Program-made: the position numbers and the translations under genes
The notes under the pieces: model-generated
What the model saw: the letters and a program-made list of their open reading frames with translations, nothing else
The model's database searches: none
What the model was told of the DNA's origin: nothing
In this document: positions 756-63,572 of the stretch, in pieces
Layout: each line of letters begins with the position of its first letter
Position numbering within the stretch: the stretch's first letter is position 1
NCBI GenBank assembly: GCA_963667205.1
Contig: OY762959.1
Span: forward strand, 1,342,399 to 1,406,398
Direction of reading: 5' to 3'
DNA from: Dehalococcoidia bacterium
GTDB taxonomy: Bacteria > Chloroflexota > Dehalococcoidia > SM23-28-2 > RBG-16-64-32
DNA length: 64,000 nucleotides

Positions 756-1037
756 CTACCAGCGGACGACCGTCTCAGGCTGAACGAACACGACCGCCGA
801 CTGCCAGCGCGACCACAGCTGGGAGAGGAATGACCAGAAGAGGCGGTCAGATGGGGCAAGCCTGGGTCGACGCGACTGGCGGGAGAGGACAGCGAGTTGC
901 TGGCGGAGAGCCAGGTTCTCAAGGACGAGATGCCGTCGCGAGCTCAGGGCTGCGCGCAGGGCGGAGCTGAGGAGCGACAAGTAGGTGATCAAGGCGGGGG
1001 CCTCCATTAAGGTGTAACGCCCCAACGCTGCCCCCAA
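756..1037 (-). mobile_element. Remnant of a DDE-transposase/integrase N-terminal region (about 90 aa, no catalytic domain)
   Basis: The segment HLVLENLALRQQLAVLSRQSRRPRLAPSDRLFWSFLSQLWSRWQSAVVFVQPETVVRW matches the conserved N-terminus of a widespread actinobacterial IS-type transposase family recalled from memory. The ORF is truncated and the downstream catalytic region is absent. Confidence 0.4.
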
Positions 1038-1642: not shown

Positions 1643-3172
1643 ATGCGGATAGGCTTGGTTCTCACCGTTCTTGGCGCGTTGTCAGTCTCCCTGGCCGCCT
1701 GCGGTGAAGACGGCGAGGGCCCGACGCAGACGCCGTCGGACGAGCCATCGCTGGCATCGACACCAACGACCCTGCCAGATGATCCTGAGGTGCTGATGGC
1801 CAGGGCGCTGCGCACGTCGTTCCGGGAGCTCGGTGGCGTCGTCGATAACGGCTCCGATCCGACGGCCGTGCGCGCGATGGGCGAAACGGGCGACGAGCGG
1901 TACATCCCGGTTCTCATCGAGATCCTGCGCTTCTCGTGGCTTCTCTCGACCGCAACCGAAGAGGCGACCTACAGCTCGCTGGCCGCGTTGACCGGCGCGA
2001 CGTACGATGACCTGGATCCGCATCAGTTCGACTGGACCTGGTGGGTTGAGTGGCTGGGAACGCAACCGGAAGTCGAGCTGCCGCCGGGGTTCGCCCGCTG
2101 GAAGGGTGAGTTGTTCGGCCAGCTCGTCGACCCGCGCATCAACGAGTTCTTCGCCCGGGATGATCTGGCCTCGAACATCAGGATCGAAGAGATCGTCTGG
2201 GGCGGTGTGCTGCGAGACGGGATACCGGACCTGCAGAACCCGCCGACGCTTAAGGCTAGACACGCGGACTACCTGCAAGCGAACGACCGCGTGTTCGGCG
2301 TGTCCTTCAACGGAGAAAGCCGCGCCTACCCACTGCGGATCCTAAACGCCCACGAGATGGCCAACGACGAGGTGGGAGGCGTTCACTTCGCCCTCGCCTA
2401 CTGAACACTCTGCGGGAGTGGAATCGTGTATTCCACAGAGGTAGAAGGGGAGGTCCTCTCCTTCGGCACGTCGGGGCTGCTGTACCGCAGCAACAAGCTG
2501 ATGTACGATCGCGGCTCGGAGACGCTCTGGGTGCAGTTCCGGGGCACACCGGCCGTCGGCCCGCTGGTAGGCAGCGGGATCGAGCTCGAAGTATTGCCCG
2601 TAACCCTGACGACGTGGAGCGACTGGCTCGAGCTTCACCCAGAGACGACGGTGCTGGACAACGACACCGGCGTCTACCCCGCGGATGCGTATCTCCCGGA
2701 GTCCAACGAGAGATCGATCTACTATGACTACCGCGCAGATACAGGGCCTATCTTTCCGGTCCATGAGCGAAGCGAACTGCTGCCGGCGAAGTCGCTCGTG
2801 CTGGGGCTAAATATCGACGGGCTACCGAAAGCGTATCCGCTGGCGAGGCTCAACGAACACCCCGTCACCAATGATGCCGTCGGCGGCACCGACATCGTCG
2901 TGATCGCAACTGACGGCATGCGGCTGTACCTCGAGAGCATCCGAGGTGCACGCGCATACGAACGAAACGGCCTCTCGTTCTCCGGTCCGGCGAGCGAAGA
3001 CGGTGTTCTGAGCGTAATAGATGCGTCGGGCAGGCGCTGGCTGCTGCGGGAAGACGCACTCGTGCTCGAGAGCAACCCTTCGCAATCGCTGCCGCGCCTG
3101 GAGAGCAGGGTCGCCTACTGGTTTGGCTGGTTCCAGTACCATCCGACGACGGCGATCTACGAAGCGCCGTAG
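1643..3172 (+). CDS. Putative lipoprotein with UxxC motif (called DUF3179 from memory of that family's YCPLCGSG motif, Pfam not verifiable); single gene read through an in-frame TGA at 2402-2404 as candidate selenocysteine
   Basis: ORFs 1643-2404 and 2426-3172 are in the same frame, separated only by TGA plus 7 sense codons. The joined product reads ...VGGVHFALAY-U-TLCGSGIVYSTE..., placing TGA at the first Cys of a CxxC-type motif. Both halves carry the same internal repeat (AYPLxxLNxHxxNDxVGG). The N-terminus has a lipobox (LSVSLAAC). Confidence 0.6.
2408..2440 (+). promoter_or_regulatory. Candidate bacterial SECIS hairpin 4 nt downstream of the in-frame TGA
   Basis: ctct(2408-2411) pairs with agag(2437-2440). 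gtggaat(2419-2425) pairs with attccac(2430-2436). The apical loop is cgtg and a 7-nt 5' bulge lies between the two stems. Loop G/U falls about 22 nt after the UGA. Confidence 0.45.
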
Positions 3173-3566
3173 CCGCATCCATTGCGGGCCTGCGGACGGC
3201 TGTGATCCGCAACGCTCGTGAAGCGGTTGCCGCAATCCTTCGACTGCACACGGAAGAACGGGCCACTGTCGAAGAAGAAGGCAACGCCAAGCCGACGATC
3301 GTGCCGGCCTCGCCGGAAGTGCCTTCTGCATCGTTGAGAATCGCATGCTGCTCACCGCGTACCATGTCTTCAACGAGGGGAAGGCCCGCGATCCGAAGGA
3401 CAAGTTCTACGCCATCATCGTTCCTCAGAACGGGGAGAAAGCCTACAACTTCCCCGTGGTCAGATTTCCGTTCGAGAGCCTCGAGTTGGACCTGACCGTT
3501 AAGCGTAAAGGCCCCGCACTCGCGAGGCCAGTGACCCAGGGAAAAGAGGCGAAGGCCTAATTCATC

Positions 3567-3736
3567 GGGATCGAGTTCGACAGCAACGCTGACAGCAACG
3601 TGGGCGGACTTCGGGGTGCAAGGGGAGTCAAGCTGAGACGCTTCTAGATACGGGAGAAACCTCTGGAGACAGCCTGAGACGCTGCACAGACAACTTTTAA
3701 TCCGGGAGTCGTGGGTTCGAATCCCACCGGGCCCTC
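3567..3736 (+). ncRNA. tRNA-like/tmRNA-like structured element, copy 1, in an intergenic region
   Basis: The 3' end contains a perfect T-arm, GTGGG-TTCGAAT-CCCAC, followed by the acceptor strand CGGGCCC. No complete cloverleaf lies upstream. About 170 nt is homologous to the element at 18847-18995. The 5' part contains GGGATCGAGTTCGAC. Confidence 0.35.
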
Positions 3737-3885
3737 AACAAATTCGTATCTGAAATTGGCCCGGAAGCCGAGTCACCGTAGGCGCCAAGAGGCGTTTGAC
3801 GGCAACGCAGCGGCGTTCAGTACCACGACTTCCCGCCGTCTTGCCTGTTGAGTTTACCGTCGCACGCGTTTAGATTGCGCATCAG

Positions 3886-4194
3886 ATGGATGCTGAGAAG
3901 TTCCTGGCCAGCCTTCGACAGGAAGTCCTTGATCCCATGGAGCACGCAGACACGTCAGGGATAATGGAGCAACTGGAGCAACTCAACCCCGCGATTCGTG
4001 CCCTTGAGGCGGCCAACACCGAGGAGGAACTGCGAGAGTTCCTAGAGATGCCGGGCGCCAGCGATGTGGCAGGTCACATACTCGGGATCTCTGCCCGCTG
4101 GCTTGCTGGTCGGAATCGTTCTCAAGTCGCCAGGCACCCCCCTCAGACTCTCGGTGCCGAGGGTAGTCTCACCATGAATAGCCGAACGAGATGA
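3886..4194 (+). CDS. Hypothetical small protein overlapping the amidase start
   Basis: ORF only. It has a 4-nt overlap (ATGA) with the downstream amidase gene. Confidence 0.3.
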   Translation: MDAEKFLASLRQEVLDPMEHADTSGIMEQLEQLNPAIRALEAANTEEELREFLEMPGASDVAGHILGISARWLAGRNRSQVARHPPQTLGAEGSLTMNSRTR

Positions 4195-28816: not shown

Positions 28817-30472
28817 CTATCCGTGGTCCTCCTCGAAAGCGTGCGCGGCTCTCAGAACAGTCGCGTCCTCCCAGCGCCTCCCGACAAGCATCATCCCAAC
28901 CGGAAGGCCAAGCACCTCAGCGCAGGGAACGCTGATCGCCGGGTGGCCCGTGAGATTGAACGGGCAGCTGTTCACGTGATGCCCAACACCCGACGCGAAC
29001 ATCTCTTCTCGGGACGCGTCGGCGATCAGCGGCAGGGCCGTCCCAAACGGGGCGCATGTCGGCATCACCAGCAGGTCTACGTCGCGGAAGGCCGCTTCGT
29101 AGGCGTCCTCAAGCAGCCGGACCTGGTTCTGGGCCCGGGCGTAGAAACGCCCGTGGTACTCATCAAGCATGTACTCGCCCATCAGGATGAGTAGCTTGAC
29201 CGAGTCCGGGAACTCGTCCGCCTTCCGCTTCCGCGCCTTGCCAAGGAACTCGATCATGGCCGTGGGATAGTAGCCCTTCCAGCCGGTTCCGAAACCGTTC
29301 CCGCGTACCATGCCCGCGAGACCGCCTTCACTGAAGATCGGGTTGTATATGTGTATCCCATCGCGGTGGAGGGGGACGGAGATCTCTCGCACCGTGGCGC
29401 CCGCTTTCTCGAACTTGAACGCCGCCTCCCTCACGGCCGTGTCCACATCGTCGGACGCCTCGGGCCATCCGAACCCCTCCTGCAGGACGCCCAGCCTGAG
29501 GTCGACCACGCCCCCAGCCAGCGTCTCCGTGTACTCGGTGGGTTGGATGGCATCCCTCTGTCGCGGGTCAAGCGGGTCGGATCCGGCGATGACCTCAAGC
29601 AGCAGGGCGACGTCATGCACGGAACGCCCGATCGGCCCCGCATGGTCCAGGGTGTTCTCCAAAGGCAGTATCCCCGTGTACGGCACCAGCCCGTAGGTGG
29701 GTTTCAATCCGTACACGCCACACAACGCGCTGGGGATGCGAACGGAGCCACCCTGATCGCCGCCGATCGACAGGTCGCAGGCCCCGGCGGCGACAAGCGC
29801 GGCGCTGCCGCTGGATGAGCCGCCCGCAGAGTGAGCAGGACTACGAGGATTGAGCACAAAGCCCGTATCCGCGGTGTTGGATGTGCCGGAAAGGCAGAAG
29901 TTCTCGCACACCGCCTTGCCGACGACCTCCCCGCCGGCGTCCAGAACGCGTTGAACGATCGTAGCGTCCACGTCGGGAACGAACCCTTCGAGAACCGATG
30001 ACCCGCTCATCATCGGGATGCCGGCAAGGCAGATGTTGTCCTTCAGAGCGACAGTCTTGCCACTGAGCTTCCCCTCGCGCTCGCCTTTGATCGAGCAGCG
30101 CCAGTACCAGGCGTTGAGCGGGTTCTGCTCCGCGGACGGGCGATAGCCGCCGTCACGCGCGTGCCTCACCTCAGGCTTGGGCTCCGGCAGAGACGCGACC
30201 CGCCGATAGGATTCGAGCGTCCGCTCCGCCAGGTTCGCGAAGAAGTCCACGTCTCCGTTCGTGAGGCTCATTCCGTAGAGCGCGCCGATCTGCCGTAGCC
30301 TGTCTCTTGACGGTGGCCTGATCTCGTCTTCAGCGCTCGGCATCTCGCGCCTCCTCTGCCGTCTGCCTGGGTCGAATGAGCCAGAGACCCGCTCGTTGCG
30401 TTTCTTACTGGCGTCACATAGTATGCCAGCCGACCCCTGCATTTCTGCTCCCGGCGGATCGGAGTGGCACAA
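28817..30472 (-). CDS. Amidase (amidase-signature family), second paralogue
   Basis: Carries the GGSSSGSAALVAAG amidase-signature motif. Confidence 0.9.
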   Translation of the reverse strand: MCHSDPPGAEMQGSAGILCDASKKRNERVSGSFDPGRRQRRREMPSAEDEIRPPSRDRLRQIGALYGMSLTNGDVDFFANLAERTLESYRRVASLPEPKPEVRHARDGGYRPSAEQNPLNAWYWRCSIKGEREGKLSGKTVALKDNICLAGIPMMSGSSVLEGFVPDVDATIVQRVLDAGGEVVGKAVCENFCLSGTSNTADTGFVLNPRSPAHSAGGSSSGSAALVAAGACDLSIGGDQGGSVRIPSALCGVYGLKPTYGLVPYTGILPLENTLDHAGPIGRSVHDVALLLEVIAGSDPLDPRQRDAIQPTEYTETLAGGVVDLRLGVLQEGFGWPEASDDVDTAVREAAFKFEKAGATVREISVPLHRDGIHIYNPIFSEGGLAGMVRGNGFGTGWKGYYPTAMIEFLGKARKRKADEFPDSVKLLILMGEYMLDEYHGRFYARAQNQVRLLEDAYEAAFRDVDLLVMPTCAPFGTALPLIADASREEMFASGVGHHVNSCPFNLTGHPAISVPCAEVLGLPVGMMLVGRRWEDATVLRAAHAFEEDHG

Positions 30473-32227
30473 ACGATGTCCAGCTCAGATGCTCAGAACG
30501 GCCGAACGATAGACCAGGTCACCGCCGAGATTATCCGCAACTATTTCCTCTCGGCGGTACGCGAAATGACCAACGTAACCATCCGGTCGGCGTACTCCAC
30601 TTGCTTCAGCGAGGGGGTCGACTTCACCTGCGCGATCTTCGACGAACGAGGCCGTCTTTTTGCGCAGGAGGCCGGTTTGCCCGTGCACATCGGGGCCCTG
30701 GAGGACGAGCTTGAGGTCATGCTGGAAAAGGCGGGTGAGCTGGAAGAAGGAGATATCCTGCTTCACAACGATCCGTTTGAGGGCGCCAACCACCAGTCGG
30801 ACGTCGTGCTCGCCATGCCCGTCTTCTGGGAAGGCGAACTGATCGGCGTGAGCGTGAACCGCGGCCACTGGGCGGACATAGGGGCAATGTTCGCTGGAGG
30901 CTACGGCCTGGCCCGCCACGTAGCCCAGGAAGGGCTCATCATCCCTGTGTGCAGGTTGTACAGACGCGGGAAACTGGACCGCGAGGTGCAGGAGTTCATC
31001 CTCAAGAACATTCGGATGTCCAGCCTCGTATGGGGTGACATTCAAGCACAGGTTTCATCAGCTCAGACTGCTGCCACCCGAATGCGCGAGATCGTTGAAC
31101 GGTACGGCCTGAAGGTAGTGCGGGAGGCTATTCAGTACAGCCTGGACTATGCCCGGCACCGCTTTCTCGAGCGCATGGACGTCTTGCCCAACGGCATCTT
31201 CACGGCGGAGGACGTAATGGATGACGACGGGTTTGGCCGCGGCCCCTACCGCATCAAGGCGACGATCGAAAAGACGACCGACAAGATCAAGGTCGACTTT
31301 TCGGGCACGGACAAGCAGGCGCAGGGGGCGGCGAACTGTACCCTCGGCGCTACGAAGTCGGCGGTCATTACGGCGCTTAAGGCCCTCATCGACCCCGAGA
31401 TGCCCCTGAACTCCGGCATCCGGGGAATCGTCGAGATCAACGCGCCCGCCGGAACGATAGTGAATCCCACGTACCCGGCGCCGGTCTGCTGCGCGTCCGC
31501 TGATTCCACGGCGCGCATCTGCGAGACCATCCTCCGCTGCTGGGTGGATGCCGTTCCGGAACGCGCGCTGGCCGGGAGCTACAGCAGCGGCCTCAACTCA
31601 ACCGGCTGGGGCACGACCAGCAACGGCAAGGAGTTCCTCTGGTACATCTTCGGCCCCGGGGGCACCGGCGCGCGCCACACACGCGACGGCTGTGCGGTTG
31701 AGTGGCACTCAATGGCTTGCTGCGGCAACGAATCGATCGAGGTGTGGGAGTCCCGCTACCCGGTGCGTTTCCACAAGCGGGAGCTGCGCACCGACTCAGG
31801 CGGTGCGGGAAGAACCCGTGGTGGAGTGGGCGATGTGCGTGTCATGGAGTGTCTTGCGGAGACGCTGGTCAGCTCGTACCTGGACCGCTGGGAGTCCAGT
31901 CCCTGGGGCATCCATGGCGGCCTGCCGGCAGCCTGCAACGAGCTGGCTCTCGAGCGTGACGGCGCTGAAAGAAGCTTCAGTGAGTGCTTTGGCCTCCCGT
32001 CGCCTTCGAAGTTCGCGAACGTGACGCTGGCTCTTGGCGACCGATTCATCATGAGATCCGGCGGTGGTGGCGGCTACGGCCCGGCACAGGAGCGCGATCC
32101 GGAGCTGGTGGCACGCGATGTCAGAGACGGCTACGTGTCGGCGCAGTTTGCCCGGGAGGTCTACGGGGTTGCGCTGGCGCCGAACGGATCCGTCGACCGC
32201 GACGGAACACGAGCGCTGAGAGCCTGA
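30464..32227 (+). CDS. Hydantoinase B / 5-oxoprolinase B-subunit family protein (HyuB-like), stand-alone
   Basis: VTAEIIRNYFLSAVREMTNVTIRSAYSTCFSEGVDF is the conserved HyuB N-terminus. No HyuA lies adjacent. Confidence 0.9.
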   Translation: MAQTMSSSDAQNGRTIDQVTAEIIRNYFLSAVREMTNVTIRSAYSTCFSEGVDFTCAIFDERGRLFAQEAGLPVHIGALEDELEVMLEKAGELEEGDILLHNDPFEGANHQSDVVLAMPVFWEGELIGVSVNRGHWADIGAMFAGGYGLARHVAQEGLIIPVCRLYRRGKLDREVQEFILKNIRMSSLVWGDIQAQVSSAQTAATRMREIVERYGLKVVREAIQYSLDYARHRFLERMDVLPNGIFTAEDVMDDDGFGRGPYRIKATIEKTTDKIKVDFSGTDKQAQGAANCTLGATKSAVITALKALIDPEMPLNSGIRGIVEINAPAGTIVNPTYPAPVCCASADSTARICETILRCWVDAVPERALAGSYSSGLNSTGWGTTSNGKEFLWYIFGPGGTGARHTRDGCAVEWHSMACCGNESIEVWESRYPVRFHKRELRTDSGGAGRTRGGVGDVRVMECLAETLVSSYLDRWESSPWGIHGGLPAACNELALERDGAERSFSECFGLPSPSKFANVTLALGDRFIMRSGGGGGYGPAQERDPELVARDVRDGYVSAQFAREVYGVALAPNGSVDRDGTRALRA

Positions 32228-37248: not shown

Positions 37249-38988
37249 TCAGGCTGCGCGCGAGGGCTGATGCTGGCCGAAGGCCTCTCGCATCACTTCG
37301 AAGATCTCGCCCGCCGTGCAGTAGCTCCGGACTGCATCCAGCATAGCCGGCACGATGTTGTGCCCTGCCGTCTCTGCCTTGCGCTGGCAGGCGTCGCGCA
37401 GGTTCGCCAGGCCCTTGCTCGCCGTGGCGGCGTCGCGCTCGTCGCGGAGCTTCTGGACCCGTTCGACCTGACGCTGCGCCGTGTCTTCGGCGACCTGGAA
37501 GACCGGTACTACGGGCTCTTCCTCCTCCACGAACTTGTTGACGCCAACGACCACGCGATTACCGGCGTCGACCTCTCGCTGCCGGGTGACGGTGCCTTCG
37601 ACCATGCGCTCATCGTAGAGGCCGGCGTCTATCGCCTTCACGGCGCCTCCCATGGACTCGACCTGGTCCAGCAGGCGCTCGGCGTCCTTCTCCAGCCGCG
37701 CCGTCAGGTCCTCGACGAAGTATGAGCCGCCGAGAGGATCGACGGTGTTAGCGACTCCGCTCTCGTGGTGGATGATCTGCTTCGTGAGCTGAGCGACGCG
37801 AGTCGACTCATACGTTGGCAGCCCGAGCGCCTCATCGTAAGCCGGTGCCCAGATGTGCTCCACGCCGCCAAGGATAGCGGCCAGCACCTGGAGGCTCGCA
37901 CGGACAGTGTTGTTCAGAGGCTGAAGCGCCGTCATGAGCGTGCCGTTCGTGTACGTCGTGATGCGCAGGCCGAGGACTTTGGGATCGTCGCACGCGTAGC
38001 GCCTCTTCATGAACTTGGCGTATACCTTCCGGGCAGCGCGGAACTTGGCTGCCTCTTCGAAAAGGTCGCCGTCGGTGGACATGTGAAGGTCCATCGTGGG
38101 CACGATCTGCTCGAGCTCAAGGCCGCGCCGGAGCCCGGCGTCTACGTACGTCACGAAGTTAGAGATACCGAACGCGATCTCCTCGGCCGGCGTCACCCCA
38201 CCCCAGCGTACCTGTGTGCTGCACACGTACTGAGGCACCCACTGCGGCTGCTCCTTGATGATGTACTCGACGACGTCAGTAGCCAGCTCCACGGCGATCG
38301 GGATCCCGAAGATGTAGGTGCCCCTGCCGGTGTACTCCTTCAGCGGATCGTTCTGCAGCCGCACGCGCATATTCTTCGGATCGAAGCCTTTGGCCTCGCC
38401 GGCCGACTGGAAGAGCGCCAGGGCATAAGGGCCGATGCAGTTGCCGACGGTGCTCAGTCCCACCTGGTCCAGGGGGATGCCGTCGAAAAGTTGTTCGGCG
38501 TCCTTGAGTGAGCTCACCGCGACACCCGCCCGCCCCACCTCGCCGAAGGCCATCGGGTGGTCGGGGTCGTACCCGAGCTGTGTGGGAAGGTCCATCGCGA
38601 GAGTGAGCCAGTTCGCCCCATGGGAGACAAGCTCCCGGTATCTCTCGTTCGCGTCGCTGCTGTCTCCAAAGCCGGTGTAGAAGTCGTGTGGCCACTCGAA
38701 GTTGCGATAGCCGGCAGCGTAGCGGCCGCGCGTAAACGGATACTGCCCCGCCCAGCCGCTGTCGCGCTCGTAGACGTGATCGGCCACGTCCGCCGGGGTG
38801 TATTGACGCTTGACTAGATAATCGCCGCCCAGCGTGCGAAACTCATCCTTCGTCTCGGGCTTGGCGGACAGTTCCGCCTGCAGGGTGGTCTCTTCCCAGC
38901 GCTGATCAGCGGACAGAAGCCCTTCGACGTCGTCCCCGTTGCGGCTCCCGTTGGCCTGCTGCTTTCGAGTTTTCTCCGAGCGCGCCAT
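37249..38988 (-). CDS. Acyl-CoA (methylmalonyl-CoA-type) mutase large substrate-binding subunit
   Basis: Mutase TIM-barrel sequence (FTRGRYAAGYRNFEWPHDFYTGFG...). The start was chosen at ATG 38988, preceded by GGAGGA. The longer ORF upstream looks non-coding. Confidence 0.85.
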   Translation of the reverse strand: MARSEKTRKQQANGSRNGDDVEGLLSADQRWEETTLQAELSAKPETKDEFRTLGGDYLVKRQYTPADVADHVYERDSGWAGQYPFTRGRYAAGYRNFEWPHDFYTGFGDSSDANERYRELVSHGANWLTLAMDLPTQLGYDPDHPMAFGEVGRAGVAVSSLKDAEQLFDGIPLDQVGLSTVGNCIGPYALALFQSAGEAKGFDPKNMRVRLQNDPLKEYTGRGTYIFGIPIAVELATDVVEYIIKEQPQWVPQYVCSTQVRWGGVTPAEEIAFGISNFVTYVDAGLRRGLELEQIVPTMDLHMSTDGDLFEEAAKFRAARKVYAKFMKRRYACDDPKVLGLRITTYTNGTLMTALQPLNNTVRASLQVLAAILGGVEHIWAPAYDEALGLPTYESTRVAQLTKQIIHHESGVANTVDPLGGSYFVEDLTARLEKDAERLLDQVESMGGAVKAIDAGLYDERMVEGTVTRQREVDAGNRVVVGVNKFVEEEEPVVPVFQVAEDTAQRQVERVQKLRDERDAATASKGLANLRDACQRKAETAGHNIVPAMLDAVRSYCTAGEIFEVMREAFGQHQPSRAA

Positions 38989-39157
38989 GACGTCCTCCTT
39001 GACCTGCCCGGTCGCCAGAACGCCGGAGGCGCTTTGTCTGGCCGCCAGGTGACGAGGGGGATCGATGGCCGCATGTTGCCAGACCCCCAAACTCGAGGGT
39101 AGTTTAGCACAAGCGGAAACCGGAATAAGGGTTCTATCAAGCAGATCGGAGGAGACA

Positions 39158-39634
39158 ATGACTCTCGAGAACGTTGAGCAACGGCTGAGGAATCTGGAGG
39201 ATATCGAAGCAATTCGGACGCTCAAGGCTCGCTACTGCGCCTACTGTGACAACAGCTACGATCCGGACGGGATAGCCGGTCTCTTCGTGGACGAAGGCGT
39301 CTGGGATGGTGGTGACCGAATGGGCGAGTACAACGGCAAGGAGGCCATTCGCGACTTCTTTGCTGAGGCCTCCAAGATGTTTCCGTTCGCCCTTCACTAC
39401 GGGCTCAACCACACCATCGATGTTGACGGGGACAGCGCCCGCGGGACGTGGTTCCTCTTCATGGCGGCGACACGGCGCGACGAGCACGGCGAGCGGGCGA
39501 TCTGGAACGCACTGCGATACGAAGATGACCTGGTTCGCGTTGACGGCCAGTGGAAGTTCAAGCGGATTCGCGTAGCAGAGCGCTACTTCACGACTCCGTT
39601 CGACGTTGGCTGGGCGAAACAGGCGAGCCTCTGA
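39158..39634 (+). CDS. NTF2/SnoaL-like domain protein
   Basis: NLEDIEAIRTLKARYCAYCD pattern of the SnoaL-like fold. Start taken at the internal ATG. Confidence 0.55.
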   Translation: MTLENVEQRLRNLEDIEAIRTLKARYCAYCDNSYDPDGIAGLFVDEGVWDGGDRMGEYNGKEAIRDFFAEASKMFPFALHYGLNHTIDVDGDSARGTWFLFMAATRRDEHGERAIWNALRYEDDLVRVDGQWKFKRIRVAERYFTTPFDVGWAKQASL

Positions 39635-52828: not shown

Positions 52829-53832
52829 TTGACCGGGCCGACGTTCGGCAGACGCGACTGCAACGCGCGACCGGTGGCCTCGTTGTAATACCTGCTGACC
52901 TTGAGCACCTCGTCAACGGAGATCCCGGTCCGCGTTCCCATGCCTTCCAGCATCTCCACGAGGTCCTCCGTCGCGACGTTGCCCCACGCCTCCGGGATGA
53001 ACGGCACGTCGCCGCCAAGGCCCCCAAACGAGGAGTCGATCGTGAGGTTCTCTATCGGCGAGTCCAACACGGCCAGTGCATTGGCGATCCCAGCTCCCCG
53101 CGAGTCGTGAAAGTGAACGCTGATCGGGAAGTCGCCGACGATCTCCGAGACCGCTGCGAACATCTCGGACACCTGACGCGGGTCGGCCTGCCCGGTCGAA
53201 TCCGAGATAACGATCTCATCCACCTCGGCCGCTTCGTGCAGCCGTCGTACGGACGCGAAGACCACGGCGGGATCGATCGCCCCCTTCATGGAACAGCCGA
53301 AAGAGGCGCTGATGAAGACCATCGTCCGGAGGTCCTGCTTCTTCACTTCTTCAGCCTGTGCGATGACCTCTTCGATTCGCTCGTCCACCGTGCGATCGAG
53401 GCCGTTCGCCTTGAGTACCTCTTCGGAGGTCGCGTGAAGCAGGTGCACCTCGTCGATCAGGCCGGCCTCCGCCAACGCCAGCGCTCGATTGATCGCCCTC
53501 GTGTTCGGCGCGAGGGCGGAGATGATGACGCCTTCCACCGGTCCCAGCTGCTCAAGCACCGCTTCGGCATCGGCCATGTGAGGCATCGCCTTAGGACTGA
53601 CGAGCGAGACGGCGTTGATCGTCTTGCAGCCGGCCTCGATTAGCCCCTGTATCAGGCGCACCTTCACATCGGTCTCGACGATGCCGGCCTCGGCCTGGAG
53701 AGCCTCTCGTGGGCCCACCTCCCGTATCTTCACGCTGTCCCTGAACCTCATATCCCCATACCTTTCATTCGGATCTAGAACGCGACCCCTTCGTCCCTCC
53801 AGCTGCCGAACACACCCCGCAGGCCGTCGCAT
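52804..53832 (-). CDS. HMG-CoA lyase-like (HMGL family) protein
   Basis: VKIREVGPREALQAE...LIEAGCKTINAVSLVSPKAMPHMADAE matches the HMGL-like TIM-barrel. Confidence 0.85.
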   Translation of the reverse strand: MRRPAGCVRQLEGRRGRVLDPNERYGDMRFRDSVKIREVGPREALQAEAGIVETDVKVRLIQGLIEAGCKTINAVSLVSPKAMPHMADAEAVLEQLGPVEGVIISALAPNTRAINRALALAEAGLIDEVHLLHATSEEVLKANGLDRTVDERIEEVIAQAEEVKKQDLRTMVFISASFGCSMKGAIDPAVVFASVRRLHEAAEVDEIVISDSTGQADPRQVSEMFAAVSEIVGDFPISVHFHDSRGAGIANALAVLDSPIENLTIDSSFGGLGGDVPFIPEAWGNVATEDLVEMLEGMGTRTGISVDEVLKVSRYYNEATGRALQSRLPNVGPVKWKSAHVA

Positions 53833-55469
53833 ACTTCTCCTATCGTCGCCCCCTGCCTGAAGGCGTTGATCAACGGCTCGACCATGTTGTCGGTCCCCTC
53901 GGCAGCCGCCACCATGAGTTCGAGCGCCTCGTCAACATCGGCCTGCGAGCGCCCCTGCCGGCAGCGGAGCAGTCGTTCGATCTGCCTTTCCGCCGACTTA
54001 CCCTTTATTTTGAACGGCTTGATCGAACTCGATCCGTTGCTCTGCTGCTTGAAGCGGTTGACACCAACGACCGTCCTGGTCCCCTCTTCGATCTCTTTCT
54101 GATAAGCGTAAGCTGAGTCGTCGATTCGGCCGCGGAGGTAGCCGCTCTTGAGAGCCGCGATCACGCCGCCGATCTGCTCGACATCATCCATCGAACTCTT
54201 GATTCGCCCTTCGAGTTCGTCGGTCAGGTGCTCTACCAGCCAGCTGCCACCCAGAGGATCGGCAACCGAGCCGATGCTCGTTTCGTAGGCGAGGATGTTC
54301 TGCGTTGCCACCGCCAGCCGTGAGGCCTCCTGCGAGGGAGTCGCCAGCGCCTCATCGATGGAGAGGGTGCCAATGTGCTGAACACCTCCGAGCGCTGCGG
54401 CGAGAGCCATGAGTGTGATGCGAACGCTGTTGTTCAGGGGCTCTTGTGCCGTCAGACGATATCCGGCGGTGTACAGACTGACGCGTAGCTGCTGGCTCTC
54501 CGGCAGCTTGGCGCCGTAATCTTCCTTCATCATTCGCGCCCAGACTCGTCGCGCGGCGCGGAACTTCGCCACTTCTTCCAGCAGGTCCATGTCCGACGCG
54601 AGATGCAGTTCGAGCAGGGGACCGAACTCGTCGATGTCCAGTCCTCTTCGCAGCAACTCATCGATGTAGATGCGGGCCGAGGCGATGCCGAATGCGATCT
54701 CCTGAACAGCGTCCCCGCCCGACCACCGGTACTGACTACCGCAGATGCCTATCGGCTTCCAGTTGTCGAGCCGGTTGCGGACGGCGTACTCGATAACGTC
54801 ACAGGAAAGACGAATCGATGGCTCGATCGGGAAGATGAAAGTACCGCGGCCTGTGAACTCCTTCAGCGGATCGTTCTGCAGATGGAGGACGAAGTCGTTG
54901 GGATCAACCCGCTGGTGCTCAGCGAGCAGGACGAACCAGGCGGCCGCCATCGGCCCGATGCAGTTGCCGACGGTGAACACCACACCGGCCTCGGCAAGCG
55001 GAATCTCATCGAATAGGTCTCGAACGTCGTCGAAGGCGTCGATTGCCACGCCGACCCGCCCGACTTCGCCGAGTGCGTCGCCGTGGTCCGAGTCCAGCCC
55101 CAGCTGCGTGGGCAGATCAAGGGCGATGTTCACCCCCGACGCGCCGCCCTCCAGGAGCTGCTTGTAGCGCTCGCGCGCGTCTTCGACGTTCCCAAAGCCG
55201 GCGTAGAGGTCGAAATGCCACACCTTCTGCCGATAGCCGTCTGGCGTTAGTCCGCGAGTAAACGGGTACTCTCCCGGCTTCTCTCCGGGAGCGTTCTCAT
55301 CGGCAGCCTTCAGATCTTCCGGGCCGTAGGAGGGAGCGAGGGGAATGCGAGAGTCCGTCGAGTGGACCCGCAGCACCTTCTCACCCTTCCACGCCTCTTC
55401 TACTGTGATCGCGTCGGGATCATGCTCAGAAGAGCCCGGCGGGCCGTGAGTTTCTTGCGCATCCATCTC
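53775..55469 (-). CDS. Acyl-CoA mutase large substrate-binding subunit, second paralogue (no adjacent B12 subunit)
   Basis: Mutase barrel sequence (YPFTRGLTPDGYRQKVWHFDLYAGFG...). Start taken at the internal ATG (MDAQETHG). Confidence 0.8.
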   Translation of the reverse strand, partial: EMDAQETHGPPGSSEHDPDAITVEEAWKGEKVLRVHSTDSRIPLAPSYGPEDLKAADENAPGEKPGEYPFTRGLTPDGYRQKVWHFDLYAGFGNVEDARERYKQLLEGGASGVNIALDLPTQLGLDSDHGDALGEVGRVGVAIDAFDDVRDLFDEIPLAEAGVVFTVGNCIGPMAAAWFVLLAEHQRVDPNDFVLHLQNDPLKEFTGRGTFIFPIEPSIRLSCDVIEYAVRNRLDNWKPIGICGSQYRWSGGDAVQEIAFGIASARIYIDELLRRGLDIDEFGPLLELHLASDMDLLEEVAKFRAARRVWARMMKEDYGAKLPESQQLRVSLYTAGYRLTAQEPLNNSVRITLMALAAALGGVQHIGTLSIDEALATPSQEASRLAVATQNILAYETSIGSVADPLGGSWLVEHLTDELEGRIKSSMDDVEQIGGVIAALKSGYLRGRIDDSAYAYQKEIEEGTRTVVGVNRFKQQSNGSSSIKPFKIKGKSAERQIERLLRCRQGRSQADVDEALELMVAAAEGTDNMVEPLINAFRQGATIGEVCDGLRGVFGSWRDEGVAF

Positions 55470-55694
55470 ATCGCCCCTTCTGCGAAGACCCCCGAAGCGA
55501 TCGGGTGCAGCGGCCACAGCGTGCTGGTTGGTTGGAGGATCACTGAGCCGCGTTTCCGGAATCTGCGCGACGTTCGTCAGCGCTAGCATAGCCAGCGCTC
55601 CGACAGGCTGTCAATTCGCGCGGCGTATGGGAATTGGGGCGCGCCAGACCCGTATCGCTCGACGAGTCCCTATAATGCGGATCGGAGGTTATCT

Positions 55695-57970: not shown

Positions 57971-59749
57971 CTAGCTCTTGCCGGCAGACCGCAGCTCAGC
58001 GGTCTTCTTCGCGTCGACCGATCCGTCCGGTCGCACGGCCACTCGATAGGCGTCCCGCGCCGCGTCCGCGGAGACGTAGCCGTTCTTCACGTCCGCTGCA
58101 ACGAGTTCCGCGTCGCGCTCAGCCGGAGCGCCGTATCCGCCTCCGCCGCCGCCTTTGATCACGAATGCGTCGCCGACGTCGAGCAAGATGTTCGAGAACT
58201 TCGCGTTCGAAGCGACACCAAACAGCTCCGGAAAGCTGTGCTCTTGCCCGCCGCGGACGACGGCGAAGTCGTTGCCCGTACCTTCGAGCCCGCCTTCAAC
58301 ACCCCAGGGCTTCGAAACGACTCGATCGGCGCAGGCCGTTACGTACGTCTCCTCGAGGCATTCCATCGCGCGGACATCGCCGAGTCCGCCTCGTGTCCTG
58401 CCCGGTCCGGCGGAGTCGGTTCGGAGCTCGCGCTTCGAGAAGCGCACCGGGTAGCGGGCCTCCCAGACCTCGATCGACTCGTTTCCGCAGCAGCCCATCG
58501 GGTGCCATTCGGCGGTGAGACCGTCGCGCGAACGGCGCGCGCCGCAGCCCCCCGGGCCGAACGAGTACCAGAGATACTCCTCGCCTTCCTTGGTGAGCGA
58601 CCAGCCGGTGCAGTTGAGGCCGCCGCTGTAGCTGCCAGCCACGATGCGGTCGGGCACCGCCCCTGCCAACGCCCGCAGCACCGTCTCGCAGACCCTCGCC
58701 GAGGGATCTCCCGTGCCGAAGAACACCGGTGCCGGGTACGTCGGGTTGACGAGCGTGCCCAGAGGAGCTCGCACGTCGATCAGGTCGAGGATTCCGGAGT
58801 TCAGCGGCATCTCGGGATCGATCACCGCCTTCACGGCCGTTAGCACTCCCGCCTTCGTCAGCGCGAACGTGCAGTTCGCGGGCCCCTGCGCCTGCTCGCT
58901 CGAACCTTCGAAATCGACTGTGATCTTGTCCGGCGTCTTGCCGAGGGTCACCTTGATCAGAAACGGGCCGCCGCCGAAGCCGTCGTCGTCCATGACGTCC
59001 GATGACTCGAACCGCCCGTTGGGAAGAGTTGCCATACGCTCGCTGAACCTTCTGTGCGCGTAGTCAAGGCTGTACTGGATAGCGGCTCGTACCTCGGCGA
59101 CACCATGGCGTTCAGCCAGCTCTGCCATCCGGTCAGACGCCGCGTGTGCCGAGGAGATCTGCGCCTGTATGTCCCCCCAGATGAGGCGCGGCATGCGCAC
59201 GTTCTTGAGGATGAACTCCTGAACCTCACGCTGCAGCTTCCCGCCACGATACAGATGGCAGACGGGGATAATGAGCCCTTCCTGCACGACGTGGCGCGCC
59301 GAGCCGGACCAACCGCCCGCAGTCATTCCGCCGACGTCGGTCCAGTGCCCTCGGTTCACGCTGAGTCCGAGCAGCTCGCCGCCCGCGAACATCGGCGTCG
59401 CGATGACGACGTCGGCCTGGTGGCAGGCGCCGGTGTATGGGTCGTTGTGGAGGATGACGTCGCCCTCCTGAAGCTCGCCCGCCTGATCGAGGATCGTCTG
59501 GATCGCGTCGAAGAGTGAGCCGATGTGCAGCGGAAGTCCGGCCGCCTGCGCGAACAGGCGACCGCGGTCATCGAAGAGCGCGCAGGAGAAGTCGATCCCC
59601 TCGGCGAAGCACGTCGAGTAAGCGGACCGGATCGTCACGTTCGTCATCTCCCGGACGGCCGACAGGAAGTAGTTGCGCATGATTTCGGCCGTGACCGGGT
59701 CGACCCCTTTGGCCAGATCGGCGGCGGCTGAAGTGTTAGTAGTCGCCAT
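57971..59749 (-). CDS. Hydantoinase B / oxoprolinase B family protein (HyuB-like)
   Basis: VTAEIMRNYFLSAVREMTNVTIRSAYSTCFAEGIDF N-terminus. Confidence 0.9.
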   Translation of the reverse strand: MATTNTSAAADLAKGVDPVTAEIMRNYFLSAVREMTNVTIRSAYSTCFAEGIDFSCALFDDRGRLFAQAAGLPLHIGSLFDAIQTILDQAGELQEGDVILHNDPYTGACHQADVVIATPMFAGGELLGLSVNRGHWTDVGGMTAGGWSGSARHVVQEGLIIPVCHLYRGGKLQREVQEFILKNVRMPRLIWGDIQAQISSAHAASDRMAELAERHGVAEVRAAIQYSLDYAHRRFSERMATLPNGRFESSDVMDDDGFGGGPFLIKVTLGKTPDKITVDFEGSSEQAQGPANCTFALTKAGVLTAVKAVIDPEMPLNSGILDLIDVRAPLGTLVNPTYPAPVFFGTGDPSARVCETVLRALAGAVPDRIVAGSYSGGLNCTGWSLTKEGEEYLWYSFGPGGCGARRSRDGLTAEWHPMGCCGNESIEVWEARYPVRFSKRELRTDSAGPGRTRGGLGDVRAMECLEETYVTACADRVVSKPWGVEGGLEGTGNDFAVVRGGQEHSFPELFGVASNAKFSNILLDVGDAFVIKGGGGGGYGAPAERDAELVAADVKNGYVSADAARDAYRVAVRPDGSVDAKKTAELRSAGKS

Positions 59750-59836
59750 GGTGGATGGTCCTCTCTCCTTCTCGCCTGATAATCAGTATAGCGCTACTAC
59801 TGAAGTGCTCCGGGCCCAGGCCGACGCTGGCGACTG

Positions 59837-61624
59837 CTAACTGGCGCTGCGCAAGCGATCGGTGGTCTTCCGGTCAACGGTCTCGTCTGGTTCCAGCGCC
59901 ACGCGGTAGACGTCCTGCGCCACCTGGGCGGAAACGTAGCCGTTCTTGACGTCCGACGCCACCTGTTGCTCGTCTCGGTCCTGGGGCGGACCGAACCCCC
60001 CGCCGCCGCCGGCCCTGATCACGATCCTGTCACCGGCGATGAGGGGGAGATTCGAGAACTTGGAGGGTGAGGTGACGCCGAACAGCTCCGGGAACGTGTA
60101 TTCCCGGCCACCCCTCTGCACGCGAAACTCGTTGCTCACGCCGGGCAGTCCATCCTCGATGCTCCACGACTGTGAGTCCCAGCGATCGGCGCAGGCGGTG
60201 AAGAACGTATCGCTCGTCACCTCCATGATCCTGACGTCGCCCAGGCCACCTCTCGTCCGTCCGGGCCCGCCTGAGTCCTGCCGCAGTTCTCGCTTGAGGA
60301 AGCGGATCGGAAACCGAGCTTCCCAGATCTCCATCGATTCGTTTCCGCACGAGACCACCGTGTGCCACTCCGCCGTCAGGCCATCTTTGTCCTTACGCGC
60401 CCCACAGCCGCCCGGGCCGAATATGTACCAAAGCGACTCAGTGCCGTCTTCGGCCATCGACCAGCCAGTGGAGTTGTGGCCGCTGCTATAGCTGCCGGCG
60501 ACGAGGCGATCGGGGATCACCTGCGCCCAGACCTTGAGCGTCGTATCGCAGACGCGGGCCACGGGATCGGCGGTTCCGAAGAAGACCGGGGCCGGATAGG
60601 TTGGGTTCACGATGGTGCCGGGCGGCGCACTCACTTCGATCAGGTCGAGGATGCCGGAGTTGAGCGGCATCTCCGGGTCGACCAACGCTTTGAGAGCCGT
60701 GAGGACTCCCGCCTTGGTCAGGGCGAAGGTGCAGTTGGCCGGACCCTGCGCCTGCTCGTCCGTGCCCTCGAAGTCGACGAGGATCTTGTCCGGAGTCTTG
60801 TCTATCGTGATCCTGATGTGGAAAGGGCCGCCGCCGAAGCCGTCGTCGTCCATCACGTCTTCCGCCTTGAACACGCCGTTGGGGAGCGAGTCCATGCGCT
60901 CCCGGAAGCGCTTCTTCGCGTAGTCGAGGCTGTGCTGGATCGCTTCGCGCACCTCGGCCAGCCCGTAGCGGTCGACCAGGTCGCTCATCCGGTCCGCTGC
61001 CGCCCGAGCCGATGCGATCTGCGCCTGTATGTCGCCCCAGATGAGCCGCGGCATGCGCACGTTCTTGAGGACGAACTCCCGGACCTCTCGGTTGACCTCG
61101 CCCTTGCGGTACAGGTGACAGACCGGGATGATCAGCCCCTCCTGGGCGACGTGCCTGGCCGAGCCGGACCAGCCGCCCGCAGCCATGCCGCCGACGTCCA
61201 TCCAGTGCCCGCGGTTGACGCTGAGGCCGATGAACTCACCCTTCGAGAACATCGGCGTGGCGACGACGACGTCTGCCTGGTGACAGGCGCCGCTGTAGGG
61301 ATCGTTGTGAAGGATGACGTCGCCCTCTTCAAGCTCGCCTTCCTGTTCGAGGATCGTATCGACGGCGTCGAAGAGGGAGCCGAAGTGAACCGGTATGCCG
61401 CCAGCCTGCGCGAAGAGCCGCCCGCGCTCGTCGAACAAAGCACAGGAGAAGTCCACCGCCTCGCTGAAGCACGTGGAATACGCCGCCCGCGTTGTGACGC
61501 TGATCATCTCGCGCACCGCCGAGAGCATGTAGTTGCGAATGATCTCGGTCGTAACCGCGTCGAATTCGGCCGACGCCTCGGCTTTAGTGGATTTCGATGG
61601 TGATGTTGCCATACTCGTCGACAC
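59837..61624 (-). CDS. Hydantoinase B / oxoprolinase B family protein (HyuB-like), tandem paralogue
   Basis: VTTEIIRNYMLSAVREMISVTTRAAYSTCFSEAVDF N-terminus. It overlaps the upstream hyuA-like gene. Confidence 0.9.
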   Translation of the reverse strand: MSTSMATSPSKSTKAEASAEFDAVTTEIIRNYMLSAVREMISVTTRAAYSTCFSEAVDFSCALFDERGRLFAQAGGIPVHFGSLFDAVDTILEQEGELEEGDVILHNDPYSGACHQADVVVATPMFSKGEFIGLSVNRGHWMDVGGMAAGGWSGSARHVAQEGLIIPVCHLYRKGEVNREVREFVLKNVRMPRLIWGDIQAQIASARAAADRMSDLVDRYGLAEVREAIQHSLDYAKKRFRERMDSLPNGVFKAEDVMDDDGFGGGPFHIRITIDKTPDKILVDFEGTDEQAQGPANCTFALTKAGVLTALKALVDPEMPLNSGILDLIEVSAPPGTIVNPTYPAPVFFGTADPVARVCDTTLKVWAQVIPDRLVAGSYSSGHNSTGWSMAEDGTESLWYIFGPGGCGARKDKDGLTAEWHTVVSCGNESMEIWEARFPIRFLKRELRQDSGGPGRTRGGLGDVRIMEVTSDTFFTACADRWDSQSWSIEDGLPGVSNEFRVQRGGREYTFPELFGVTSPSKFSNLPLIAGDRIVIRAGGGGGFGPPQDRDEQQVASDVKNGYVSAQVAQDVYRVALEPDETVDRKTTDRLRSAS

Positions 61625-63572
61625 TCGCCTCCGTGTCCGCCGGCATATACGTGGTGGTGTCCGGCTCCTCGATCAAAGCCGGGCCCTTGAGCGTAGCGCC
61701 AACGCCGAGGTCACCGCGATCGAAGACCTTCGCCTCGCCGAATGCGGTCTCCGCCGTGGCCTTCACGGGCGGGCTCTTCGATCCGGACACGTGAACGCTC
61801 ATCTCTCGCTCCGTTATCCGGCCGATCGCCACGACCTTGAGGTCAACGATCTCGGCCGGGTCGCCGAGCTGAGTTCCGTAGCGAGCCAGGTGAGCGTCCT
61901 CAAACTCCTTGTACAGCGCATCGCCGTCCAGGGAGTTCGTCAGCTCGATGGGAAGTTCGTGCGACTGGCCCAGGTAGCGCATGTAGGCGACACGGCGAGC
62001 TGTCACCTCCTCGACGACGTCCTCGCCGATGAGAGGAGCCTTCGCCGATTCCTCCAGCTCCTGGAAGTACTTCTCCAACTGCTTGCCATCGACCGCGGAC
62101 ACCTCCGCGAGGATAGTCCGGCTGGCCGTGTTGTGGAGGTCGGCGCTTAACAGCCCGAGGGCCGAGAAGACTGACGGGAAGACGGGAACGATGACGCTTG
62201 AGATGTCCATTTCGCGGGCTACCTCGACGGCATGCTGAGCGCCGCCGCCACCGAAGGCGACCATCGTAAACGCCCTCGGGTCCACACCCTTGAAGACAGT
62301 GATCTCGCGGATCGCCTGGGCCATGTTGGAGTTGACGATTCGATAGACCCCCTTGGCCGCGTCTTCGATGCTCAGCCCGAGCTGATCCGCTATCGGACTC
62401 ATCGCCTTCTCCGCCGCGGCCCGGTCAAGCGGTATCTCGCCCATCGCGAAGCGGTCCGGCCTAATCAGCCCGAGGAGGAGGTTGGCGTCGGTCACCGTCG
62501 GCAGTTCACCGCCGCGACCGTAGCAGGCCGGCCCGGGACTCGATCCCGCGCTCTTCGGCCCGACCTTGAGCGCTCCGCCGGGGTCGACTTCGGCGATGCT
62601 TCCGCCGCCGGCGCCTATCGAATGGATATCGACGGTGTGGGTGCGCACCGGAATGCCCCATTGGACGAACAGCTCGTCTTTTTCGTCCGCTTCGCCATTC
62701 TGGATCACGCAGACATCGAAGCTCGTGCCGCCCATATCGACCGTGATGAGGTCCTCGTTCCCGATCGTCGAGCCGAGGAGCTTCCCCCCGAGCACGCCTC
62801 CGACTGGGCCCGAGTAGACGAGGTTGACGGGCGCCTTCGCTGCCTGCTTGGCACCGACGACGCCGCCGCTGGACTGCATGAATTTGATCCCGTGACGCAC
62901 AGGGATATTCGCATCAAGGGTTGATCCGTAGCGCGTGAAACCGGGCATGGCGTAGGCGTTGACCACCGTCGTGCTCATGCGGGGGTACTCGCGGATTCTC
63001 GGGTCAATCTCGTACGACACTGAGAGATGAAGATCCGGCCAACGCTTCCGCGCGATCTCCGCGACACGCTGTTCGTGCTGAGGGTTCTTGTACGAGTTCA
63101 TCAGGCAGATCGCCAGCGCCTCTACCCCGTCGGCGACAAGCCCGGAGAGAACCTCCTCGATCTCCGCGTCGTCCGGTGGCTTGAGTACGTTGCCGTCGGC
63201 GTCGATGCGCTCGTCGATCTCACGCCGCAGGTGCCGCGGCACAAGCGGCGGTGTCTTCTCCCACTGGAGGTCGTAGGGGTTGGGCCGCAGCCCCGTCTGG
63301 ATCTCGAGCACATCCCGGAAGCCCTTCGTCGTCAGGAAGCCGACGGTGCCGCCGGAACGGGTGATGATGAGGTTCGTGATCAAGGTCGTTGCATGGAGGA
63401 AGAGGTCGATGTCGGCGGCCTCGATGCCAGCCTTTGAGAGCGCCGCCAGGAGGCCCTCCTCAGGACTGCTGGGAGTCGAAAGCGCCTTCGTCCGGCCCAG
63501 CTCCTTGGTCTCCTCATCGAACCATACGAGGTCCGTGAATGTCCCGCCGATGTCAACTGCGACTCGCTTCAT
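61584..63572 (-). CDS. Hydantoinase A / oxoprolinase A family protein (HyuA-like)
   Basis: MKRVAVDIGGTFTDLV N-terminus and HyuA-length protein. Confidence 0.9.
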   Translation of the reverse strand: MKRVAVDIGGTFTDLVWFDEETKELGRTKALSTPSSPEEGLLAALSKAGIEAADIDLFLHATTLITNLIITRSGGTVGFLTTKGFRDVLEIQTGLRPNPYDLQWEKTPPLVPRHLRREIDERIDADGNVLKPPDDAEIEEVLSGLVADGVEALAICLMNSYKNPQHEQRVAEIARKRWPDLHLSVSYEIDPRIREYPRMSTTVVNAYAMPGFTRYGSTLDANIPVRHGIKFMQSSGGVVGAKQAAKAPVNLVYSGPVGGVLGGKLLGSTIGNEDLITVDMGGTSFDVCVIQNGEADEKDELFVQWGIPVRTHTVDIHSIGAGGGSIAEVDPGGALKVGPKSAGSSPGPACYGRGGELPTVTDANLLLGLIRPDRFAMGEIPLDRAAAEKAMSPIADQLGLSIEDAAKGVYRIVNSNMAQAIREITVFKGVDPRAFTMVAFGGGGAQHAVEVAREMDISSVIVPVFPSVFSALGLLSADLHNTASRTILAEVSAVDGKQLEKYFQELEESAKAPLIGEDVVEEVTARRVAYMRYLGQSHELPIELTNSLDGDALYKEFEDAHLARYGTQLGDPAEIVDLKVVAIGRITEREMSVHVSGSKSPPVKATAETAFGEAKVFDRGDLGVGATLKGPALIEEPDTTTYMPADTEASVDEYGNITIEIH

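Follow-up and report, generated by a model that had tools for sequence, protein, structure and literature searches.

The window that we analysed, a 64-kb stretch (64,000 nucleotides) of a 4.57-Mb contig, has 63% G+C and is rich in hydantoinase, family III CoA-transferase, methylmalonyl-CoA mutase, amidase and AtuA genes. On its forward strand, an open reading frame (ORF) at 1643..2404 ends at a TGA (2402-2404), and the same frame then stays open until a TAG at 3170-3172. We noted that the part upstream of the TGA (1643..2401) encodes a lipoprotein-type signal peptide (...SVSLAAC), a HEAT-like repeat region and the first third of a DUF3179 domain (Pfam PF11376), and that the part downstream (2405..3172, closed by the TAG) is in frame with it and carries the same Pfam domain on across the UGA. 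The two parts have GC3 values of 0.81 and 0.78. When a Cys was put in place of the stop, the fused product came to 509 residues with a single PF11376 match at residues 191-503, which covers the whole profile (1-292 of 292, E 3.9e-75) and spans the UGA. A scan of the fused protein against NCBIfam gave no family match, and a sequence search of the PDB with it gave no solved DUF3179 relative, only weak matches to HEAT and alphaRep repeats at residues 73-100.

In the public assembly with this sequence, the locus is annotated as two separate gene calls of 253 and 248 aa. The earlier note on this DNA had seen the same split and had pointed out that the GTG start of the second ORF (2426..3172) falls inside the loop of a hairpin just past the UGA, which is indeed where it lies. 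We believe it very likely that 1643-3172 is a single gene for one DUF3179 protein, with the UGA at 2402-2404 decoded as selenocysteine (Sec) and the hairpin at 2418-2436 acting as its bacterial SECIS element. This protein would have a UxxC motif and is probably exported as a lipoprotein.

The UGA falls where 119 of the 120 best database homologues have the first Cys of the invariant AYCTLCG, a CxxC motif, which makes the codon the putative first residue of a UxxC motif (AY-U-TLCG). The TGA is kept in relatives, and NCBI names one of them a "DUF3179 domain-containing (seleno)protein". Sec at 2402-2404 would give a UxxC redox-type motif instead of the family's CxxC.

An in-frame UGA might also be read through without the Sec machinery, by near-cognate insertion of Trp or Cys, or because the lineage has reassigned the codon. 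TGA is a minority stop in the window, ending 6 of the 25 other tabulated genes (23 of these 25 are Pfam-supported) as opposed to 16 that end in TAG, and Sec machinery is not seen in the 64 kb: selA, selB and selD are not among the 20 large window ORFs that we scanned with Pfam, which hold catabolic genes only, and ARAGORN found no tRNA, tRNA(Sec) included, in the window. Given that the window is just 64 kb of a 4.57-Mb contig, the missing machinery says little. The six genes that TGA does terminate, five of them Pfam-supported, indicate that the codon is not reassigned, and the UGA takes the place of a catalytic-type Cys in a CxxC motif, which is where Sec and Cys classically interchange, in a family and a lineage that are documented users of Sec. 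We consider read-through without Sec to be highly improbable. Across the window we also looked for other ORFs split by an in-frame TGA and found nothing convincing; an ORF pair at 40750 was considered as a further case, and it looks like two adjacent genes.

The hairpin that we take to be the SECIS element starts after a gap of 13 nt from the UGA, on the forward strand. Its upper stem is formed by GUGGAAU (2418-2424) and AUUCCAC (2430-2436), which are perfectly complementary over 7 bp, just as the earlier note had described them. The loop between them had been given as the 4-nt CGUG; it is in fact 5 nt long, CGUGU (2425-2429). The UGA is separated from the loop by 20 nt (2405-2424), and the loop bases G2426 and U2427 lie 22 and 23 nt past the A of the UGA, in agreement with the distance of about 22 nt that had been claimed for them. 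As RNA, the 19-nt upper stem-loop at 2418-2436 reads GUGGAAUCGUGUAUUCCAC, and the near-invariant core of the hairpin, at 2420-2434, is GGAAUCGUGUAUUCC; the counterpart in Cys-form genes, discussed below, is GCGGCAUCGUGUACGCGAC. Beneath the upper stem, CUCU at 2408-2411 can pair with AGAG at 2437-2440, both on the forward strand, to make a 4-bp lower stem. The bulge between the two stems on the 5' side, once counted as 7 nt, is 6 nt (2412-2417), and it is not conserved.

Folding of the window sequence by itself says rather little about this hairpin. The earlier note had suggested running RNAfold on 2400-2450, and the minimum-energy fold of that segment (-14.4 kcal/mol) turned out to be a different one, with GGAGUG/UAUUCC paired in a shifted register around an 8-nt loop. 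The proposed structure, with the 7-bp stem and the 4-bp lower stem, reaches -9.6 kcal/mol, and a variant that keeps the 7-bp stem above a 4x4 internal loop and a lower stem at 2409-2413/2441-2445 reaches -13.5 kcal/mol. The 7-bp hairpin alone has -7.8 kcal/mol in the context of the window and -6.3 kcal/mol as a stem-loop cut free of its flanks. Compared with dinucleotide shuffles, the fold has a z-score of only -1.3 and so lacks significance as a single sequence. The window has 1874 TGA trinucleotides, and 1.2% of them precede an uninterrupted hairpin with at least 7 Watson-Crick base pairs and a SECIS-like loop and spacing, and at this background rate the window hairpin taken alone is only mildly unusual. 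It is the comparative data, described in the following paragraphs, that in our judgement put the hairpin far beyond chance.

We scanned one genome per bacterial or archaeal species with the pattern RCN-TAY-TGA-ACN-YTN-TGY-GGN-NNN-GSN-RT and found at least 119 loci with a TGA at this codon, nearly all of them from Dehalococcoidia, SAR202 or other Chloroflexota. About 117 of the at least 119 loci listed are full-length DUF3179 homologues, 39-57% identical to the window protein, and their frames are open on both sides of the TGA. These numbers bear on the possibility that we are looking at a Cys-form DUF3179 gene with a nonsense mutation, or with a sequencing error, at the TGA, which would leave a pseudogene or two fragments, and that the hairpin is there by chance in a GC-rich coding sequence. 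Such an explanation is in line with the splitting of the gene into two ORFs by the gene caller of the source assembly, with the lack of significance of the single-sequence fold, and with the fact that the closest database protein homologues are Cys forms. However, at least about 117 full-length homologues share the TGA across different species and have both halves intact, which rules out a private mutation or error, and both GC3 and domain continuity are normal on either side of the UGA.

To compare the hairpins, we aligned 54 nt from the UGA on, without gaps, for 113 distinct sequences among the matches listed; the 99 distinct sequences among these matches that carry the GIVY peptide are referred to here as the main group. 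The earlier note had said that homologous genes without any conserved hairpin would speak against the element, and we found the opposite. GGAAU-CGUGU-AUUCC is present exactly in 92 of the 99 main-group sequences, at the same position, 20 nt past the UGA, and most of the remaining ones have GGGAU, in which a G-U pair is kept. The loop is CGUGU in 96 of these 99 relatives, and the core pairs are formed in 88-97% of all 113 sequences. In terms of codons, the main group has GGA in 93 sequences, AUC in 96, GUG in 98, UAU in 99 and UCC in 98, and the synonymous sites of these five codons are fixed in 94-100% of the group. Two positions upstream, the group uses all four Gly codons (GGC 53, GGU 31, GGA 8, GGG 7), and the Thr residue right after the UGA is likewise encoded by all four synonyms. 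Three of the five, GGA, UAU and UCC, are minority codons in the window's own genes, where they account for 14%, 17% and 19% of their codon families, and with the codon usage of the window the five codons would occur together, given the peptide, with a probability of 0.0012. The RNA of the hairpin is more conserved than the encoded protein requires.

Compensatory changes are also found in the stem. The pair 2419/2435 (alignment positions 18/34) is C-G in 48, U-A in 31, G-C in 2 and unpaired in 32 of the 113 sequences, and the outermost pair, 2418/2436, is formed in just 15 of them. One locus (L112) has an internal double change from A-U to C-G, and in three sequences with the loop AUA-GUS-UAU an extra A-U pair closes the loop. 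In a neighbour-joining tree, the C-G and U-A states of 2419/2435 are largely clade-specific, and the independent events are few: approximately two switches between C-G and U-A, one change to G-C and the one internal double change. Given these small numbers, the case rests mainly on the frozen synonymous sites and on the contrast between Sec and Cys forms.

For the 99 main-group sequences, RNAalifold gives a 6-bp stem with a 5-nt loop. Individual stems in this group have 5 bp (18 sequences), 6 bp (66), 7 bp (12, with the window included), 8 bp (2) or 9 bp (1), and the energy of the hairpin in these 99 relatives ranges from -12.0 to -2.9 kcal/mol, with a mean of -5.2 kcal/mol. When all 113 sequences were used, including the divergent subgroups, RNAalifold returned no consensus structure, which is explained by the mixing in of subgroups with different hairpins together with the weakness of the core stem. 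The hairpins of these divergent Sec-form subgroups are in roughly the same place; one subgroup has GGCGUC-CUGUAC-GACGCC and another has GGAUC-GGS-GAUCC.

We considered and rejected several other pairings as part of the element. The 4-bp lower stem proposed earlier (2408-2411/2437-2440) exists in the window and is not conserved, with 49% of cells paired across the 113 sequences and a 5' side that is fixed by Leu-Cys codons. The alternative lower stem (2409-2413/2441-2445) has 56% of cells paired, a figure driven by columns that are fixed by coding. The minimum-energy register, GGAGUG/UAUUCC, is not conserved in the relatives either. Since it is the upper stem-loop that is conserved and not the minimum-energy register, discarding the element because it is not the minimum-energy fold, as the earlier note had proposed, would be a wrong rejection. 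The sequence comparison indicates that the functional unit is the short upper stem-loop, consisting of 5-7 bp and the CGUGU loop, and the lower stem is probably incidental.

DUF3179 genes that have Cys in place of Sec serve as a control for the peptide. For Cys forms that encode C[TS]LCGxGIVY, a metagenome scan (5 loci) and four contig look-ups yielded eight distinct genes, and the closest homologues of the window protein, at 61-69% identity, are among them. Where the Sec forms have GGA-AUC-GUG-UAU-UCC, these genes use GGC, GGG or GGU, then AUC or AUU, GUG or GUC, and UAC (UAU in two), followed by GCN, GAA, GAG or CGA, and none of the eight can form the GGAAU/AUUCC stem. We found no Cys-form paralogues in the TGA loci collected or in the window. 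We examined 1.05 Mb for hairpins with a CGUGU loop and 5 bp or more, and of the 108 that turned up, 98 are copies of this element, all of them at precisely 20 nt from the UGA; the window holds a single such hairpin, the element at 2418-2436. Given that the hairpin is kept in the Sec forms and absent from Cys forms with the same peptide, it goes with the UGA rather than with the peptide. The window itself has the Sec-form codon set and not the Cys-form GGC...UAC...GCN, which also speaks against a broken Cys-form gene. Between the kept TGA, the conserved hairpin and the contrast with the Cys forms, the idea of a nonsense mutation or sequencing error is largely refuted, and we give it almost no chance.

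A hairpin that is real could still be there for another role, such as ribosome pausing, mRNA stability or local regulation, or it could have been conserved by recent ancestry or horizontal spread and not by selection on the RNA. In favour of these explanations are the scarcity of independent compensatory events, the shortness and weakness of the stem in the majority of relatives, and the lack of a match to any known SECIS covariance model. On the other hand, the element is confined to genes that bear the UGA, where the spacing is fixed at 20 nt, and Cys forms of the same peptide have lost it. Shared ancestry cannot explain the frozen sites, given that neighbouring synonymous sites vary freely and protein identity is no more than 39-57%. 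Loop bases are fixed even at a synonymous site (GUG in 98 of 99), which is what recognition by a sequence-specific protein predicts. We regard another role, or conservation by ancestry, as very unlikely. Based on the comparisons above, the hairpin is very probably the signal for reading the UGA at 2402 as Sec in the DUF3179 protein.

If the E. coli mechanism holds here, the apical stem-loop at 2418-2436 would be bound by the C-terminal domain of SelB carrying Sec-tRNA(Sec). SelB would in this way be kept on hand at the ribosome as the UGA moves into the A site, and Sec insertion would outcompete release factor 2. We infer the binding of SelB, the role of the loop G-U and the actual insertion of Sec from the established bacterial mechanism.

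The bacterial SECIS consensus by Zhang and Gladyshev (bSECISearch), in the form that PMC13188914 gives it, has a loop of 3-9 nt and an upper stem of 4-16 bp, with a G in the first two loop positions that is usually followed by G or U, a distance of 16-37 nt from the UGA to the loop, and an energy of -7.5 kcal/mol or lower (PMC13188914, Fig. 2A). The claim in the earlier note that the hairpin has the general architecture of a bacterial SECIS holds up well against this figure in loop, stem, G-U and the 20-nt spacing, and the upper stem-loop is conserved in the TGA-bearing relatives. As in the consensus, the window hairpin lies inside the coding sequence, directly past the Sec-UGA, in one frame and within a single DUF3179 domain; its loop has 5 nt and its stem 7 bp (5-9 bp in the 99 relatives), G2426 is at loop position 2 with U2427 next, and the 20-nt spacing is identical in all 98 copies of the element. 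The hairpin also behaves as a SECIS element should among orthologues, in that it is conserved in those that bear the UGA and absent from the Cys forms.

There are also differences from the consensus. Set against the energy threshold of -7.5 kcal/mol, the window hairpin has -7.8 kcal/mol in context, -6.3 kcal/mol isolated, and -9.6 or -13.5 kcal/mol with one or the other of the optional lower stems, and the mean of the relatives is -5.2 kcal/mol; many relatives are weaker than the threshold, their only shortfall from the consensus, and most stems have just 5-6 bp. In a common sub-pattern of the consensus, the loop bases N1 and N2 pair, whereas the window loop, CGUGU, would set C against U. The DUF3179 hairpin has no conserved lower helix.

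The experimentally characterised prototype of these elements is the SECIS of E. coli fdhF, a hairpin immediately 3' of the UGA of which the apical part alone is needed, with the loop G-U at about G23 and U24 (counting the U of the UGA as 1). In the same numbering, the loop bases in the window are G25 and U26, so in both elements the G-U is a little over 20 nt from the UGA, with the window loop about 2 nt farther away. The window element has no sequence similarity to fdhF and no bulged U in the upper stem, its stem is shorter and AU-rich, and binding by SelB is a prediction in this case.

Rfam has a eukaryotic SECIS family, SECIS_1, and bacterial families SECIS_2 to SECIS_5. The earlier note had called for a comparison with bacterial SECIS covariance models, and no Rfam SECIS family matches, either in the whole window at gathering thresholds or in 2300-3900 at E values up to 10. 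In functional class the window hairpin would belong with these families, but it is a member of no curated RNA family. The only weak Rfam matches fall on a tRNA-like T-arm near 3700.

The DUF3179 selenoprotein family, the SECIS mechanism and the use of selenium in this lineage are already documented. Two reviews (PMC9312934 and PMC13188914) list DUF3179 in their tables as a prokaryotic selenoprotein family with the motif UxxC/T, credit the DUF3179 selenoprotein to Zhang and Gladyshev 2007, and place its first report in a deltaproteobacterial symbiont. The window protein resembles the family in its full-length Pfam match, in having the predicted Sec at the first Cys position (U-T-L-C) and in having abundant Cys-form homologues. 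Unlike the first-reported member, the window copy comes from a Dehalococcoidia-type genome, with a lipoprotein signal at its N terminus and a HEAT-like region. The papers that we consulted give no description of a Dehalococcoidia-wide GGAAU-CGUGU-AUUCC SECIS.

It is possible, and we propose it tentatively, that the Dehalococcoidia DUF3179 genes share a distinct, minimal class of SECIS with an AU-rich stem of 5-6 bp, a near-invariant CGUGU pentaloop and a fixed 20-nt spacing. Such a class would be weaker than the energy threshold and lack a lower helix, which would leave sequence as the main basis of recognition. If this is true, recognition would be strict enough to freeze G-I-V-Y-S in the Sec forms, and the signal would decay quickly once Sec reverts to Cys. 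It would also mean a new RNA family, and would hint that SelB in this selenoprotein-rich lineage has a specificity unlike that of the E. coli and Moorella paradigms. An RNA-family entry may be warranted for the CGUGU hairpin, which is invariant across the lineage, although a specialist would not be surprised by it.

For annotation, our reading means that the adjacent "DUF3179" ORFs of 253 and 248 aa should be corrected to one 509-residue selenoprotein. The family also provides a natural experiment, in which the same peptide occurs in Sec and Cys forms and the hairpin is kept in the Sec forms alone, and this contrast shows an RNA signal within a coding region constraining both codon choice and protein sequence. 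In practice, the 15-nt GGAAUCGUGUAUUCC placed 20 nt past a TGA is a simple marker with which this selenoprotein could be re-annotated in Dehalococcoidia and SAR202 genomes. A 2026 database paper gives 49 selenoproteins for Dehalococcoidia bacterium UBA1141, and one of the loci from our scan (L046), which is from the UBA1141 genome, carries the same DUF3179 gene and hairpin.

The closest database homologues of the window protein are Cys forms, at 61-69% identity, in which a cysteine codon takes the place of the UGA. At the hairpin site, these Cys-form loci (L125-L130) read GGC AGC GGC AUC GUG UAC GCG ACA GAG, whereas the window (2414-2440) reads GGG AGU GGA AUC GUG UAU UCC ACA GAG. The differences fall mainly at the positions that form the hairpin, and this concentration suggests a recent switch between selenocysteine and cysteine in which, on the sequence comparison, the SECIS either decayed or was gained. 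Among the loci listed, post-UGA hairpins also differ in divergent TGA-bearing DUF3179 subgroups (L007, L055, L075, L101 and L117, and L029, L077, L034, L042 and L087): one subgroup has GGCGUC-CUGUAC-GACGCC after the UGA, and the other has GGAUC-GGS-GAUCC, nearer the UGA. Given such unlike hairpins, the SECIS is, judged from these sequences, remodelled within the DUF3179 family.

The selenoprotein begins with a lipoprotein-type signal, MRIGLVLTVLGALSVSLAAC, with a LAAC lipobox (window 1643-1705, + strand). If this signal is real, the UxxC selenoprotein would be exported and membrane-anchored. After the signal, residues 73-100 resemble, weakly, a HEAT/alphaRep-like repeat.

On one side of the gene, a short, truncated-looking ORF (window 756-1037, - strand) encodes a product containing LENLALRQQLAVLSRQSRRPRLAPSDRLFWSFLSQLW, which may resemble the N-terminal part of an IS-type transposase or integrase. 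On the other side, CTTTTAATCCGGGAGTCGTGGGTTCGAATCCCACCGGGCCC (window 3690-3735, + strand) has the appearance of a 3' tRNA half: its anticodon loop, CUUUUAA, points to Lys-UUU, and it also has a T-arm (GTGGG-TTCGAAT-CCCAC) and an acceptor strand at the 3' side. There is no matching 5' half, ARAGORN called no tRNAs in the window, this fragment included, and an Rfam search of 2300-3900 with E up to 10 gave only chance-level matches to the T-arm. The fragment may be an attachment site left over from an integrated element, and the bracketing of the DUF3179 gene by the ORF and the fragment hints at past mobile-element activity.

Across 25 genes in the window, 23 of them Pfam-supported, the stop codons are TAG (16), TGA (6) and TAA (3). 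TAG predominance is unusual for a genome of 63% G+C, and it could be connected with how heavily this lineage uses UGA to encode selenocysteine.

Pfam searches of 20 large ORFs placed catabolic genes at window 57971-63572 (-), 30422-32227 (+), 37249-39231 (-) and 53775-55610 (-). The window holds multiple paralogues of hydantoinase/oxoprolinase A and B subunits, two methylmalonyl-CoA mutase-like genes, and family III CoA-transferase, MmgE/PrpD and AtuA genes; catabolic content rich in paralogues is typical of SAR202-type Chloroflexota.
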